DNA from: an uncultured Mycoplasmataceae bacterium
GTDB lineage: Bacteria; Bacillota_I; Bacilli_A; Mycoplasmatales; Mycoplasmoidaceae
Reading direction: 5' to 3'
NCBI GenBank assembly: GCA_947041945.1
Contig: CAMREV010000005.1
Span: 3,501-67,500, forward strand
DNA length: 64,000 nt
This document shows positions 3,906-10,751 of this stretch, one piece after another; position 1 is the first letter of the stretch; every line of letters begins with the position of its first letter. A program made the position numbers and the translations under genes. The notes under the pieces were generated by a model, which was not told the origin of the DNA, made no database searches, and worked only from the letters and a program-made list of their open reading frames with translations.

Positions 3906-4565
3906 TTATAAATTAATTTTAATAGTTTTTTTAGGTTTGCTTTTTATGAATTTAAAATTATCAAATAAGTTAAATAAATGATCAATTGTCTTGTCTAAAG
4001 ATTTAACGATTTTGTACGTATCTAAATAGTTTTTGTTATTAATTTTGTCTGATTTTACATTTAGATCCTTTTGTAAAAAATCCTCATATATTTTTAAAAA
4101 GTTATCTTTTAAATTTAAACTTTTTTTGTAATTTACTTCTGCTTGTTTTTGCTTTAACATTTTTATTACTTCTTGAAAAATATCTAGATAATTTTTAACT
4201 AATTTTTCTAAAGATTTTGTTATTTTTATTTCATTAGAATAAATGTCTAGTATCTTATTTGGATATTTTGATAAAGCTTCCATATCTTTTACAGAATGAA
4301 TCATGCTTATAATAAATCTTAAGTGATTTGCTCTTGGTTGATCCTTTGAAATTATTCAAATGCAATCATCTAAAATGTCTTTATTTTTTTTAACTGATTC
4401 TTCAGTATAAAAAGCAATCTTATCTTTTACTCTTTTATCATTTTTCTTTTCTAAAATATTTGCTCATAAAAATTTATGCATTTTTAATAAGTGTTCTAAA
4501 TTATCAAAAAATAATTCAGATAACTCCTTTTCAGATGAAAGAAGTGTGTTGTAATTTGATGGCAT
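3906..4565 (-). CDS. phoU: Phosphate transport system regulator PhoU
   Basis: ORF 3906..4304 extends in frame through TGA codons to ATG 4565, with no in-frame TAA/TAG. It has a PhoU-like ..RFIISMIHSVKDMEALS.. motif and lies directly downstream of pstB. Confidence 0.8.
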
Positions 4566-4568
4566 ATT

Positions 4569-5402
4569 TTAACCTATCTTTCCATTAATATAATCCTTTG
4601 TTTTTTTCTCAACAGGATTCATAAATATTTTTTTAGTTCTACCTTTTTCAACAATTTTCCCCTCATAGAAGAAAACTGTTTCATTGCTTATTCTTTGTGC
4701 TTGCGCCATTGAATGTGTAACTATTATAATAGTATATTTCTTTTTTAACTTTAATATAAGTTCTTCAATTTTGGATGTAGCTATTGGATCAAGAGCAGAT
4801 GTTGGTTCATCCATTAGTAAAACTTTTGGTTCTAATGCAATTGCTCTTGCAATACATAATCTTTGTTGTTGCCCACCAGATAAACTTTCACCTGAATCAT
4901 CCAAATTGTTCTTAACTTCTTCTCATAGAGCAACATCTTTCAATGCTTTTTCAACTAATTCAGTAAGTGTTTTTTTATCTCTAATACCATGAGATCTAGG
5001 ACCATAAGCAACATTTTCAAAAATTGAAATTGGAAAAGGAGTAGGTTTTTGAAAAACCATTCCTATTTCTGTTCTAATTCTAGTTATTTCAGAATTTTTT
5101 ACTTGAATATTTTTAGATTCAAAAAAAATACTTCCTTCTTGTTTGATTCCTTCTATTAAATCATTCATTCTATTTAGAGATCTTAAAAAACTTGATTTTC
5201 CACATCCTGATGGTCCAATTAGTGATGTAATTTTATTCTTTTTTAAATTGATGTTAATATCAAATAATGCTTGTTTGGAACCGTTTTTATATCAAAGATT
5301 AAAATCAGATACTTCAAAAGAGTTTTCAAAATCAAAATCTTTTTTTACTTCGACAATTTTTGTATTGTTTTTTGAAAATTTTTCTTTGATTTTTTTATAC
5401 AT
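4569..5402 (-). CDS. pstB: Phosphate ABC transporter ATP-binding protein PstB
   Basis: ORFs 4569..4904 and 4923..5168 share a frame that extends to ATG 5402. It has Walker [10 protein letters not shown], signature LSGGQQQR and Walker B LLMDEP. Confidence 0.95.
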
Positions 5403-7368
5403 TTCTTTTCCTTTTTGTAAAAACTAATATTTTATAATAATAATCTTTTAGTTCGCTAGTTATATTTTTTCAATTTGGTATAATAGCATAACCTATAACT
5501 ATTAGTGCAAGCACTAACATTATAGTTACAAATGCTGCTTCATATTGAATATTTTTTGAATCTGGTGTGTTTGAAAATATCTGACCATATATTTGTGTGG
5601 TTAATGATGTACCTGGTCTGTTTAATGATATTTTCTTTGAAGATGATAATCCTGCAGTTAAATATAATGGTGCAGTTTCTGATAAAACTCTTCCTATTGT
5701 TAAAACAATTGAAGTAATAATTCCATTGAAGGCAATTGGCAATATTAGTTTTCTAATTGTTTCAAATTTTGTACTACCTAATGCATAAGAATTTATTCTT
5801 ACATTTTTAGAAACATTTGATAGTGATTGATTAAGAATTCTAGTGAAACTTGGAATTATTACAATTACCATTGTCAAACAACCTGCAATAATTGAGTTCC
5901 CTGTTGAACCTGTATTTGTTAAACCTAGTGTTTCAATAAAGAATAGCAATCCAAACATACCAAATAGGATTGATGGAGTTGAACCTAAACTATCTATGAA
6001 GAATAAAATTATTCTTTTAAACTTTCCATCTTTTGCATATTCACTTAAGAAAATTGCAATGAATAAACAAATTGGAAAAGAAATTATTAGTGTTACAAGG
6101 ATAATTATCAATGTATTTAAAAAAGACTGACCTATTTGATTTTGTCCATACATAAACATTGAAGAAGTTGGTAATGTTGATGCACCTACACCCTTAACAA
6201 AAATATCTCCAAAAATTCAAAATAGAAATGAGAAACAAATAATTATAGAAAATCACTCTCAAAATATTTTATAAAAAGAATAAAAATCTCTTAGCTTATG
6301 ATTATTAATTCTGTCTTTTGTGTAATCAATACATTCACTAATATTGTTTCTAGAATATTTAGATCTAAAAAACATTAAATCAAATAAATAAACCATGTTA
6401 TTTGGAATATACATAATCACATTATGAACTTTATTTTCAAATGCTTTCATTCTTCCGCTATTTTGTTTTTTCTTTCTTGAAAAAATGATAACTATTATAT
6501 TTAATATCATTGCAAATATTAACATTAATAAACCAAATGCATATAAAAGAGGTCTTGTTTGTTCTGGATTTGCATCAGCAAACATATTTTGAGAAATATA
6601 AGCACCAATTGTTTGGCTTGCGGAATTAAATAATTCAAAGAAACCATCATCAAACATTGAATTACTTGGACCTGATTGTAATATCATAGAAACGGCCATT
6701 GATTCACTAATAGATCTACCTAATGCAACTATCACAGCAATCAATATACCTTTGTTAGCTTCTTTTTTATAGACTTTATAAATTGCAGCTGTCTTTGTAC
6801 TTCCCATTGCAATCGGATTAGTTAATAAATTTCTATCAATACTTTCAAGTGTATTAATTGTCATTGCGATTATTGTTGGTAATATCATGAATGAAAGCAT
6901 TATTGATGCAGTAAATACTGAGAATGAATTAATTCCAAAAAGATTATTAAACAAAACACCCAATGAATTAATTGCAAATAAACCAAAAATAACTGAAGGA
7001 ACCCCCGAAAGAACTTCGAATGCTATTCTAAGAGTTTTTCTATATTTCTTATTTACTCTAAAAGTTATAAATATTGCTGTTTTTGTACCTAAGGGAACCG
7101 CAACAATTAAAGCTATTAATGATGTAAGAATTGATATTGTAAATGGTAATCAAAATGAAAATTGAGCAGGAACACCCTCAACAGCTTGACCAAAATTTAT
7201 TGTAAACAAAATGTTTTCAATGCCAAATAAGTGAAAACCTTCACCAGCCTTAACTGAAATAAAAATAATTAAGCATAAAAATAAAACTATTAAAAATGAA
7301 GAAAATATTATTGAACAATTTTTAAAGACAGAGTCTTTTCTATTTTTAATTTTTGATAATCTATCCAT
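5395..7368 (-). CDS. pstA: Fused PstC/PstA phosphate ABC permease
   Basis: Pieces 7150..7368, 6259..6963 and 5470..6159 share one frame. The junction stops at 7150, 6259 and 5470 are all TGA. The true TAA is at 5395..5397 and overlaps the pstB ATG. The product is a multi-TM permease of ~657 aa. Confidence 0.85.
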
Positions 7369-8456
7369 TATTTTGCACCATTATAACCAAGATCAATATC
7401 AGGAACTCAAAAGTTTTTTACTTGACTCATAGTTTCTTTTTGTTGTGGTGTTAATTCAATATATCCAGCATTTTTTATCACATCTTTTGGTACTGAATTA
7501 TTTGAAATTATTCATTCAGCAAATAATCTAATATGTGGTCTATCTGTAGCTAAAGAAACCATCATATTTAGAGGTCTATATCAATCGTAACCTTTTGTTA
7601 TATTTATAGCGTCAATCGTGGTATCTGCTCCATATGTAGCTATCTTAAACCCAGCACCTTCAATTTCTGATTTATTACTATTAATGAAACCTGCAGATAA
7701 ATATATCATTGAACCATTTTTATTATGAGCTTTGAAAAAGCTTCAAGCTTGTGAATTTGATTCAGCAGTTTTGAATGTATTTCTACCATACTGACCATCA
7801 GATAAAGCATTATCAATTTGTTGTTCTTTTATAGGATCTCTTATTTCATCTTTTCAATTTTTAAAACCTGAATCTTTAAAAAATGCATCAGCAGTTCCAG
7901 ATTGTTTTCCGCCACCATCTCTAGCGTAAGGTACAATATTTGTTTTACTTTTAGAACCAATATCAGAAAATGGCACATTATCAAAACCTGCAAATGCTAA
8001 ATATATCTTTGCAATTGTAGCTTGAGTAATATTTAATTGAAAATCAATGTCATCTGATGGTGGTTTGTAAACAACACCCATACCATCTCATGCAATAGTA
8101 ATAGTTTTTATTTTTCTATTCACTCAATCTCTAGCTTCTTTTTGTGCTTTTTCATTTTCTGGAGTAGTAGGTTCAGTTAATGATGCAAATTTAATTTTAG
8201 GATCTTTAGAAGCCATTCCAATGTCTTTTTTACCATTTACTACAACTTGCATTCCTAAACCAGAACCTCCAGCTTGTACAACAACATCAGCATCATAATA
8301 TTGATTTGCAAGTGAAGTCATTAATGGAGATACTGCAGAAGAACCAGCAGCATTTATAGTTGGGAAATTATCAGGAACTGATAAATAGATAATTGCACCA
8401 GCCATTGATGCAAATAATAAAGATGAGATTATTATTTTGATTTTTTTCATTTTCAT
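7368..8456 (-). CDS. pstS: Phosphate-binding protein PstS (signal-anchored)
   Basis: Pieces 8124..8456 and 7854..8081 share a frame joined by TGA. I checked for in-frame TAA/TAG down to the TAA at 7368..7370, which overlaps the pstA ATG by 1 nt. It has an N-terminal hydrophobic signal and the PBP motif ..AAGSSAVSPL.. Confidence 0.8.
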
Positions 8457-8462
8457 ACTTAC

Positions 8463-8514
8463 ATTATAAAAGTAAAGAACATAAATACATTAAAATAAAA
8501 ATAATATACATTAA
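8463..8514 (-). promoter_or_regulatory. Candidate pst promoter: TATAAT plus two direct TTAATGTAT repeats
   Basis: On the minus strand there is TATAAT at 8468..8463. Identical 9-mers TTAATGTAT sit at 8493..8485 and 8514..8506 (21-nt period), and the proximal one lies where a -35 would be. Confidence 0.3.
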
Positions 8515-8530
8515 GAAAATTTAATATATA

Positions 8531-9211
8531 TTATTGTTCTTTTTTTGATAAAAAATAACCTTTATTTCTAACTGAGTATAAATATTTTTGATTTAATTTT
8601 TTCTTAATAGAGGACATAAATACTTCTAAACTATTTGAATTCAAATCATCATATCCTCATATAGACTTAATTAAGAATGATTTTGAAATACATTTTTCAT
8701 CTGCCTTCATTAATTTTCTTATTATTCTGTATTCAATTTTTGTAGTGTTTAAAATTTCATTATTCAAGTAAATTATATTTGAATCCTTATCAACAACAAA
8801 ATCACCATATTTTTCAATATTTGAAAAGTACTTTGAATTAAGAATTTCATACATTCTAATTAATGAGTCTATTTTTGCTTTAAGAATTTTTGGTTCTAAT
8901 GGCGCACTTATGTAATCATTAATACCTCTTCTATATGCTCTTAATATATTTTCTAAAGTAAGTTTGTGACCATAAGCAATAATATGAGTAAATAAATGTT
9001 CAGACTTAATGTCTTTAATCATTTTTAAAGTTGAATCATAGTCTTTGTCTAAAGATAAAACTATTATGTCATAGTAGTTAACTTTAATCAAAGGAGCTGT
9101 TTTCTCAATATCTGAATTATATGTAACTTCATAACCCTCTTCATAAAGCTCTGCTTTTAAAGAAGAAAGAGTTTTTGAATCTTTATACATCATTAATATT
9201 TTAGTTTTCAT
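8531..9211 (-). CDS. OmpR/PhoB-family winged-helix response-regulator-like protein with a degenerate receiver domain
   Basis: ORF 8657..9229 reads through the TGA at 8657 to TAA 8531. ATG 9211 overlaps the metG stop by 11 nt. The C-terminus ..EYRIIRKLM...SIWGYDD...LEVFMSSIKKKL...VRNKGYFL is a typical OmpR/PhoB wHTH. The receiver keeps a ..IIVLSLD.. Asp but lacks the acidic pair ([10 protein letters not shown]) and the conserved Lys (DYISAPL). Confidence 0.7.
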
Positions 9212-10751
9212 TTTTTTCAATTCTTTCAAATAAAATTTTTGAATTATTTACTTTGATGTTATCAATACTATCAAATTTATTAATTTCAATTATAGTAAAT
9301 AAATCTTTTGGAAAACCAAATTGCTCTCATGCTTCTTTTGATTTAGAAACAAGTATAGGACTTATATAGAATATAAGTATTTTTACACTATTTGATAATA
9401 ATGATAGAAAATACATTAAATCATCTATTTTGTTTTCTTTAAATAAATTTCAAGGTTTATTGATCTCAATAAATGAATTAATATTGTTCTCTAAAATATT
9501 AATTTCTTTAACAATTAAATTAACATCTAATGTGTTAATTGTTTTTTCAATTTTACTAGTAAAATCAATAATTGTATTTTCAAATGAAACTAAATCATTA
9601 TTTTCAGTTCTTGAATACTTAGGAATTGTTTCGTTACTATATTTGTTTATTAATCCTAAAGTTCTGTTTATTATGTTTCCAAAATTATTACATAAATCGG
9701 CATTATGAGTTGTAACTAATAAATCTTCTGAAAAAGTACTATCATTTATCATTGATATTTCTTTCATAAGATAGTATCTAATTGAATCAGATCCAAACTT
9801 ATTAATTAATTCAAATGGATCAACAACATTACCAATAGATTTAGACATTTTTCCTTGGCTAGTTATAATTCAACCATGTGAAATTATTTTTGAAGGTAAT
9901 CTATAATTAAGCATTTTTAAAATAATAGGTCAATATATGCAATGGAATCTTGTAATTTCTTTTGAAAGTAAGTGTACTATTTCTGTTTTATCATCGTTTC
10001 AATATTTATCTACAAAACTATCATTACATATTGATAATCCAGAAATATAGTTTAGTAAAGCATCAAGTCAAACATATATCTTATGATTCTTGTCTTCTTT
10101 TATTTCCACACCTCAATTTAAATTATTTCTTGAAATAGAAAGATCTCTAAATTCATCATTTAGGAAATTATTTTTTAACTCAAGAACTCTTGAAGTTGGA
10201 TCAATAACAATTTCTTGATTGTCCAAAACATTAATTATTCATTCTTTAAATTCAGTTGTTTTAAGAAAATATGATTCTTCAGATCTGGAAATTATCTCGT
10301 GGCCATGTTCACAATATTTTTTATCATCTTTTATTACAACTTTTTTATCAACAATATCTTCCTCACACTGAATGCAATAAAGAGATACTCAGTTATCTAA
10401 ATATATAAATTTTTTTGAGTAAAGAGTTGAAAATTTTTCTTGAACAAATTTTTTATGTTTTTCATTTGTTGTTCTTATAAAGAAGTTTGGTTCAACTTGT
10501 AAATCTTTTCAAAGTTTTTCAAATATTAGTGAGTTTTTATCAACCAATTCTTGACATGAAATATTTTCTCTTTTAGCAATTGTTTCAATTTTTTGTCCAT
10601 GCTCATCCATACCAGTAATAAAGAAAGTATCATATCCAATAATTTTTTTATATCTTGAAATTACATCAGCTAAAATCGTTGTGTATGCATGACCAATATG
10701 TGGTTTGCCAGATGAATAGTATATTGGTGTGCTTATATAAAATTTTTTCAT
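9201..10751 (-). CDS. metG: Methionyl-tRNA synthetase
   Basis: Pieces 10509..10751 and 9450..9848 share a frame. It has the HIGH motif (KPHIGHAY) and KMSKS. The in-frame TAA at 9201..9203 was found by hand. Confidence 0.95.

Follow-up and report, generated by a model that had tools for sequence, protein, structure and literature searches.

An orphan OmpR/PhoB-type regulator with a degenerate receiver, encoded between metG and the pst operon in part of the Mycoplasmoidaceae

The window analyzed here, a stretch of 64,000 nt from an uncultured member of the Mycoplasmoidaceae, carries on its minus strand a gene for a response regulator-like protein (hereafter, the regulator), which lies between metG and a set of genes for phosphate uptake. 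In order of transcription, the locus is composed as follows:

9201..10751, minus strand: metG, methionine-tRNA ligase, the upstream gene in the transcription unit of the regulator (TIGR00398, 461 bits, over the cut-off)
9201..9211, minus strand: last 11 nt of metG, shared with the start of the regulator gene; an overlap also present in most orthologous loci
8531..9211, minus strand: regulator coding sequence, 226 aa (ATG at 9209-9211, stop codon TAA at 8531-8533)
7368..8456, minus strand: pstS, phosphate-binding lipoprotein family (TIGR02136, 67 bits, below the cut-off but the only match; supported by synteny)
5395..7368, minus strand: fused pstC-pstA permease gene (TIGR02138 and TIGR00974, both over their cut-offs)
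4569..5402, minus strand: pstB ATPase gene (TIGR00972, 388 bits, over the cut-off)
3906..4565, minus strand: phoU (TIGR02135, 63 bits, the best and only match, below the cut-off)

An earlier reading made from the sequence alone (the sequence-only reading) had placed this gene 11 nt inside the end of metG and directly beside pstS-pstCA-pstB-phoU; both statements hold, the first from the coordinates of metG and of the regulator ATG at 9211, and the second from the TIGR matches combined with synteny. The regulator was translated with genetic code 4 (table 4), which reads a single in-frame TGA as Trp, and its start was set to the ATG at 9211 instead of an upstream TTG at 9229, because the N-terminus MKT(K/N)IL is common to all orthologs in the alignment. 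The overlap with metG suggests that translation of the regulator may be coupled to that of a housekeeping gene. Among the neighboring products, PstS stands out: it shares only 68-69% of its residues with the orthologs of sister genomes, compared with 83-95% for PstCA, PstB, PhoU, MetG and the regulator. As a surface lipoprotein, it appears to evolve fast, and the host immune system may exert pressure on it.

The protein can be divided into three parts on the basis of alignments, secondary structure, Pfam, AF2 and Foldseek:

8900..9211, minus strand: pseudo-receiver core, residues 1-104, from beta1 to beta5
8819..8899, minus strand: alpha5 and interdomain linker, residues 105-131, EPKILKAKIDSLIRMYEILNSKYFSNI, the best-conserved part of the protein
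8534..8818, minus strand: winged-helix DNA-binding domain (Trans_reg_C), residues 132-226

The C-terminal half matches Trans_reg_C (PF00486) with 47.7 bits against a cut-off of 26.2 (residues 154-221, profile positions 4-77 of 77), and residues 11-114 match Response_reg (PF00072) with 28.1 bits, slightly below the Pfam cut-off of 30.2. These are the only receiver and the only Trans_reg_C domain that Pfam finds in the whole genome. In an AF2 model built with the family alignment as input (pLDDT 85), a (beta-alpha)5 domain is joined through a long alpha5-linker helix to a winged helix, the latter with a helix-turn-helix and a beta-hairpin wing; in the alpha2-alpha3 loop of this DNA-binding domain, W185 is invariant and G186 almost so. 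Foldseek matched the model to full-length structures of the OmpR/PhoB family at a probability of 1.00, with the DNA-bound form of CosR, an orphan atypical regulator of Campylobacter, as the top match (TM 0.64), and with HP1043, RitR and GlnR also listed. Pfam, AF2 and Foldseek thus agree with the first description of the protein as an OmpR/PhoB winged-helix output domain fused to a receiver-like domain. Of the NCBIfam models, that of PhoB ranks first (TIGR02154, 75.1 bits against a cut-off of 296.2), with the PmrA, RprY, RpaB and PhoP models ranking closely after it; NF053854 and NF007546 reach 69.9 against 270 and 44.8 against 471, respectively. Considering how far these scores lie under their cut-offs, the regulator is a generic member of the family and not the equivalog of any named regulator. 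Membership in the PhoB or PhoP equivalogs was rejected on the same grounds, as the curated equivalog cut-offs were not reached.

To read the catalytic positions of the receiver, we used a HMMER alignment to BasR/PmrA and a MAFFT alignment with two canonical response regulators, which agree with each other. Four of the five catalytic positions are replaced: the acidic pair after beta1 has become Y9/K10, S53 stands at the end of beta3 where the phospho-acceptor would be, and G81 and A103 take the places of the Thr/Ser that normally ends beta4 and of the Lys that normally ends beta5. The switch aromatic Y100 is retained. The losses of the acidic pair and of the conserved Lys had already been recognized from the sequence, and both are borne out by these alignments. 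The same reading had seen a possible phospho-acceptor in the motif IIVLSLD; that aspartate is D55, which sits two residues downstream of the acceptor position and varies between D, T and N among orthologs. Across the family, the acceptor position is occupied by Ser or Glu (Glu in the M. muris-type orthologs and in that of genus g8), and the first acidic position is an almost invariant Tyr. The conserved Lys is kept by the g8 ortholog only, the most divergent one, which also retains one acidic residue, so that the family appears to show a graded degeneration of the receiver from a canonical ancestor. According to the alignments and the AF2 model, the protein combines a receiver-like fold with the absence of the acceptor Asp, as is the case for atypical response regulators, and it has none of the residues expected of a canonical phosphorylatable receiver at the acidic pair, Asp, Thr/Ser and Lys positions. 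Judging from these residues, the pseudo-receiver would keep its fold but be incapable of phosphorylation on aspartate.

No histidine kinase had been noticed in the 64-kb window, and a search of the genome for HisKA and HATPase domains had been proposed. We therefore extended the search to the whole assembly (661 kb in 12 contigs, about 90% complete, 25% G+C). Profile searches of these 661 kb gave zero HisKA matches, the HATPase_c matches were GyrB and ParE only, and phmmer --max with three genuine kinases as queries gave a best E-value of 0.065, all in line with the original observation. The same holds within the genus: each of six genomes (the source and five others, in assemblies 83-91% complete) has exactly two HATPase_c matches, GyrB and ParE, and this agreement offsets the incompleteness of any single assembly. 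At this level of completeness, then, the regulator has no cognate histidine kinase in its genome; the genome does carry one gene for a Hanks-type Ser/Thr kinase (Pkinase; G000 C3:40800-41525). As the assembly is estimated to be 90% complete and consists of 12 contigs, one could still suppose that the regulator is an ordinary phosphorylatable response regulator with a kinase encoded in the remaining 10% or so of the genome. We give this scarcely any credence: the regulator has other residues in place of the acidic pair, the acceptor Asp, the Thr and the Lys, the HATPase_c matches are limited to GyrB and ParE in six out of six genus genomes, and a complete M. muris-type genome encodes an ortholog with Glu at the acceptor site.

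Two further observations were made during these searches. Besides GyrB and ParE, some Malacoplasma genomes contain one or two extra, weak HATPase_c-like matches of 16-28 bits (G024:C1:862287-862553, G050:C1:297731-298021, G058:C5:30267-30503 and G042:C21:2937-3176, with a second one in M. muris G024 at C1:478955-479194). In addition, one member of the Mycoplasmoidaceae from genus g3 (G014, locus L030, 8477-10208) encodes a kinase of the HAMP-HisKA-HATPase_c type downstream of a fully canonical response regulator (87.9 bits for Response_reg), and complete two-component pairs therefore do exist in the family, albeit rarely. Apart from these rare canonical pairs, our surveys of the family and the class agree with the view, from which the sequence-only reading had started, that two-component systems are almost absent from the Mollicutes.

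A degenerate catalytic site and a Pfam receiver score below the cut-off could also be expected of a functionless, decaying relic of a lost two-component system. This explanation is refuted by an analysis of selection. Among five genomes of the genus, at dS values of 0.4-1.4, dN/dS was 0.00-0.06 for the pseudo-receiver, 0.00-0.05 for alpha5 and the linker, and 0.01-0.05 for the DNA-binding domain. All domains of the regulator are thus under strong purifying selection, and the gene is not decaying; moreover, in all 11 genomes that carry it, from three genera, the reading frame is uninterrupted, and the non-catalytic surfaces are highly conserved, leaving the relic explanation next to no probability. 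Between genera, 67-78% of the positions are identical in alpha5 and the linker, whereas the DNA-binding domain reaches 42-57% and the receiver core 33-43%. The conserved stretch takes in beta5, alpha5, the linker and the strands at the start of the DNA-binding domain; so strong a conservation is unusual for the linker, which in general varies. Active proteins of the OmpR/PhoB family dimerize through their alpha4-beta5-alpha5 face, and most characterized pseudo-receiver regulators are constitutive dimers that use this same face (PMC12632262). Taken together, we identify the protein with high confidence as a selected orphan regulator of the OmpR/PhoB type, which has a pseudo-receiver and no kinase.

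The spacer between the regulator and pstS contains the following elements:

8500..8535, minus strand: hairpin with a 15-bp stem and a 6-nt loop, including the stop codon of the regulator (-10.8 kcal/mol, z = -3.05)
8514..8506 and 8493..8485, minus strand: two TTAATGTAT 9-mers, 21 nt apart, a repeat considered as a candidate operator
8463..8468, minus strand: TATAAT, a -10-like box conserved in five of the six genus genomes

The hairpin is followed by a U-rich tract at about 8488-8499, and together they look like an intrinsic terminator between metG-regulator and pstS. In the six genus genomes, four pairs of the stem have changed on both sides and still pair, one of them reading CG, UG, GU, AU or UA. 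At the Malacoplasma loci, unrelated and stronger hairpins with T-runs are found in the same place (down to -19.4 kcal/mol, z = -6.2), and in all lineages the regulator stop is followed by a hairpin and T-run and then by TATAAT before pstS. The G-U wobbles, and the fact that stems from different genera have no sequence relationship, speak for an RNA hairpin as the better reading of the inverted repeat; a palindromic operator within the genus is the less favored reading. Since a hairpin and then a TATAAT box lie between them, metG-regulator and pstS-phoU look like separate transcription units, and the regulator may be encoded just upstream of a promoter that it could control. The TATAAT box lies 6 nt before the first ATG of pstS (8456) and 12 nt before the second (8450), and it is this second ATG that is conserved in six of six genus genomes. 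No Shine-Dalgarno sequence is present, and considering this together with the closeness of the TATAAT box to the start, the pstS mRNA is probably leaderless or has a very short leader. Of the two TTAATGTAT copies, the proximal one is located at the -35 position, and the distal one coincides with the 3' arm of the hairpin. The six genus genomes share the TTAAT cores at constant spacing, whereas the full 9-mers vary, and the chance of finding some 9-mer repeat in an AT-rich spacer of 74 nt is estimated at roughly 0.1, i.e., not rare. The repeat is a candidate operator, for which chance and the constraints of hairpin and promoter are indistinguishable. By eye and by alignment, no operator motif shared across genera was found upstream of pstS.

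Next to this local arrangement, the distribution of the regulator gives an indication of its history. A word-indexed search of 5.8 billion proteins returned only 11 close relatives, the named ones being annotated as “response regulator transcription factor” in Mycoplasmoidaceae MAGs and in Malacoplasma muris. In a profile search of 1.84 billion representatives, two clusters scored over 300 bits and one scored 164, and from 141 bits downward the matches merge into generic OmpR background; the distant relative at 164 bits (P0016) has Glu at the acceptor site and is encoded on a contig of 758 bp, and so has no gene context. Orthologs (41-94% identity) are present in 11 of the 121 genomes of the family and limited to three genera: six of the nine genomes of the source genus, four genomes of the Malacoplasma genus and one of a third genus. 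Among 399 genomes of the class, we found zero orthologs outside the Mycoplasmoidaceae, and the other families of the Mycoplasmatales are essentially without any OmpR-type match. In a tree of pstCA and pstB, the carriers fall into three separate clades, and the non-carriers (the M. penetrans group, one Ureaplasma-type genome and a divergent branch of the source genus) are nested among the carriers or sister to them. As the carriers share one slot and the non-carriers keep metG beside pstS, repeated loss of an old gene is the simplest history, and the pattern points to the regulator as such a gene, probably lost several times.

Its deeper ancestry is less clear. The nearest canonical relatives in the Bacilli are a mixed set of ordinary pairs of response regulator and histidine kinase (P0020, P0021 and the top genome matches) that do not adjoin pst. 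The family could not be traced back to PhoP, as this mixed set also includes WalRK-like units of response regulator, histidine kinase and htrA beside rarA. Such units, which are encoded divergently from rarA in Bacilli family f20 (L063-L065), are the best-scoring canonical relatives of the regulator; rarA is also located two genes upstream of the regulator in the source locus, and its proximity in both settings may hint at a shared origin or be due to chance.

The slot itself is highly stable. The order metG-regulator-pstS-pstCA-pstB-phoU was found in all eight extended related loci (17-kb regions from three genera, 41-94% identity), and in genus g8 the regulator has stayed beside pstS even though the genes upstream of metG differ. 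A Ureaplasma-type genome (G001, 751,679 bp, locus L054) has the same prs-rnmV-rsmI-rarA-metG-pstS-pstCA-pstB block as the source, without the regulator; here, a spacer of 87 nt takes the place of the regulator gene between metG and pstS, and in M. penetrans (G012, locus L051), too, metG directly precedes pstS. The pst operon and PhoU are present in 105 of the 121 family genomes, compared with about 11 for the regulator. Considering that most pst-bearing genomes do without it, the regulator is not required for pst expression, and by the same counts the presence of PhoU is no evidence for a coupling between the two. What ties the regulator to pst is their conserved adjacency, which appears to be partly frozen synteny.

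We therefore weighed the possibility that the protein is a general or differently targeted regulator, comparable to the essential HP1043/HsrA or CosR, with its regulon elsewhere in the genome and its position beside pst a frozen ancestral gene order. The syntenic block from prs to metG and pstS, which persists in Ureaplasma-type genomes lacking the regulator, is what would be expected in that case, and so is the terminator-like hairpin that stands between the regulator and pst. In addition, CosR, RitR and HP1043 are among the closest structures, and the genome has very few other transcription factors, with its one Trans_reg_C protein being this regulator. On the other side, the adjacency of regulator and pstS has survived in g8 with different genes upstream of metG, an essential global role is hard to reconcile with the repeated loss of the gene (in M. 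penetrans, in Ureaplasma and in some members of its own genus), and local regulators commonly adjoin their targets. On balance we regard this explanation as unlikely, yet as the most serious of the alternatives.

Comparison with characterized proteins indicates that the regulator belongs to the known class of atypical response regulators, among which ChxR of Chlamydia trachomatis offers a close parallel: it is likewise an orphan in the reduced genome of a host-dependent bacterium and consists of a receiver fold and a winged helix. Like the M. muris-type and g8 orthologs of the regulator, it has Glu in place of the acceptor Asp, and it acts as a phosphorylation-independent dimer (PMC3960148, PMC12632262). 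Orthology between the two is not detectable, as the regulator family stands alone in the profile search of 1.84 billion representatives. Furthermore, ChxR autoregulates, binds direct repeats and has no link to pst, whereas the regulator has no defined site and does adjoin pst. HP1043/HsrA of Helicobacter pylori and CosR of Campylobacter jejuni are also orphan OmpR-type regulators with degenerate receivers from small, AT-rich genomes, and they are among the best structure and sequence matches (CosR 8uvk, TM 0.64; HP1043 2hqr, E-value 3.8e-12). Identity to the regulator is just 22-23%, both are essential global regulators in contrast to a gene that has been lost repeatedly, and CosR retains the conserved Lys where the regulator has A103. 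Membership in the HP1043/CosR clade was rejected in view of this low identity and of the island that the regulator family forms in the profile search.

PhoB of Escherichia coli and PhoP of Bacillus subtilis share the architecture of the regulator, the gene of which adjoins pstS-pstCA-pstB-phoU, and the W-G motif that has a role in the activation loop of PhoB is retained in it. Unlike these two, the regulator has neither a PhoR nor the residues for phosphorylation. Equivalogs of PhoB and PhoP respond to phosphate limitation and bind Pho-box repeats in the -35 region of pst and other Pho genes; in the spacer upstream of this pstS, the two TTAAT cores are a candidate operator only, and no Pho box was recognized. 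A last parallel is RitR of Streptococcus pneumoniae, which also combines an aspartate-less receiver with a winged helix and is among the top PDB profile matches (5u8k). The linker of RitR is functionally important, and that of the regulator is its best-conserved segment; RitR is switched by a disulfide of a linker cysteine (PMC12632262), whereas the linker of the regulator has no cysteine.

For a degenerate regulator without a kinase that keeps a conserved position beside pst, control without Asp phosphorylation appears to be the only tenable reading. The sequence-only reading had suggested as much, and the lost residues, the missing kinase and the conserved pst-adjacent position all support it. 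Dimerization and DNA binding without Asp phosphorylation may be inferred from the absence of the Asp and of a kinase and from the conserved alpha4-beta5-alpha5 face. Our preferred explanation is that the protein is a kinase-less, presumably dimeric regulator of the ChxR/HP1043/CosR kind that probably controls the pst promoter. Its position makes the pstS promoter the most likely target, a view that we hold at slightly better than even confidence. In such a scheme, translational coupling to metG would keep the regulator at a low, growth-linked level, and the unphosphorylated protein would dimerize through its highly conserved alpha4-beta5-alpha5 face. The dimer would then bind AT-rich sites within the 74-nt spacer upstream of pstS and activate or tune the separate promoter of pstS-pstCA-pstB-phoU; the retained W-G motif in the activation loop would be compatible with a contact to the sigma factor. 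Constitutive dimers with an OmpR-type architecture and a pseudo-receiver have precedents in ChxR, HP1043 and GlnR (PMC12632262, PMC3960148, PMC5253667). As for the input, if there is one, the regulator may respond to a ligand bound in its remodeled pocket, to a protein that interacts with it (PhoU or PstB, for example) or to phosphorylation by the one Hanks-type kinase of the genome; alternatively, its activity may simply follow its own abundance.

Two of these inputs make up an explanation of their own, in which a Pho regulator would receive its signal from something other than a partner kinase, either through direct binding of PhoU or PstB, the speculative suggestion of the sequence-only reading, or through phosphorylation by the Hanks-type kinase, e.g., at S53. 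This concerns the input only and is compatible with our preferred explanation as well as with that of a general regulator, so its probability, which we judge to be low and a little below that of the latter, is not to be summed with theirs. The acceptor position is S or E family-wide, the Glu of the M. muris-type and g8 orthologs being phosphomimetic-like, the genome holds one Pkinase gene, and the unusually conserved linker and alpha5 would fit a partner-binding surface; moreover, Ser/Thr kinases are known to act on OmpR-type regulators, the aspartate-less RitR among them (PMC4395418, PMC4601284). Set against this, genes for PhoU and Pkinase are widespread in mycoplasmas without the regulator and show no co-variation with it, and an alternation of Ser and Glu is equally expected at a site that simply lost its function. 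More speculatively, and with distinctly less confidence, the Pho response may have been rewired without any kinase, with the pseudo-receiver itself as the sensor. As a first option, inorganic phosphate or a phosphometabolite would be bound in the remodeled pocket (conserved Y9, S12, S/E53, Y80 and H82); as a second, the regulator would dock directly on PhoU or PstB via its unusually conserved alpha5-linker surface. If this were true, the state of the transporter would be read straight into pst transcription.

In the literature, we found no relevant description of a Mollicute response regulator linked to pst. A census from 2015 reported aspartate-less receivers to be absent from the Mollicutes (PMC4395418), which the regulator contradicts; the census probably missed this family because its receivers score below the Pfam threshold. 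A second, unrelated OmpR-like protein of about 240 aa, also without a kinase, is encoded at a conserved place after prfA-prmC-tsaC-rpiB in other genomes (L029 7537-8259, in the M. penetrans-type G012; L031 7872-8588; L062 3718-4440, in G053 of the source genus) and absent from the source genome; Pfam sees only its Trans_reg_C domain and does not recognize the N-terminal half as a receiver. Another family of the Mycoplasmatales (G514, L061 6767-7477) has an OmpR-like protein of 236 aa with a degenerate N-terminal half, encoded between a recO-like gene and pgi, away from pst. Kinase-less regulators of the OmpR type thus seem to be a recurrent, under-noticed feature of the Mollicutes.

Textbooks cite mycoplasmas as bacteria in which signal transduction is almost absent and transcription factors are very scarce. 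Part of the Mycoplasmoidaceae, as seen here, has lost the kinase of a two-component system and retained its output half, which is under strong selection. How pseudo-receivers are switched on and off is the main open question of the field (PMC12632262), and with its graded degeneration and its fixed locus beside a well-understood operon, this family offers a compact system in which to address it. In cultivable relatives, such as M. muris and iowae-like species, the regulator flags a likely regulator of phosphate uptake.
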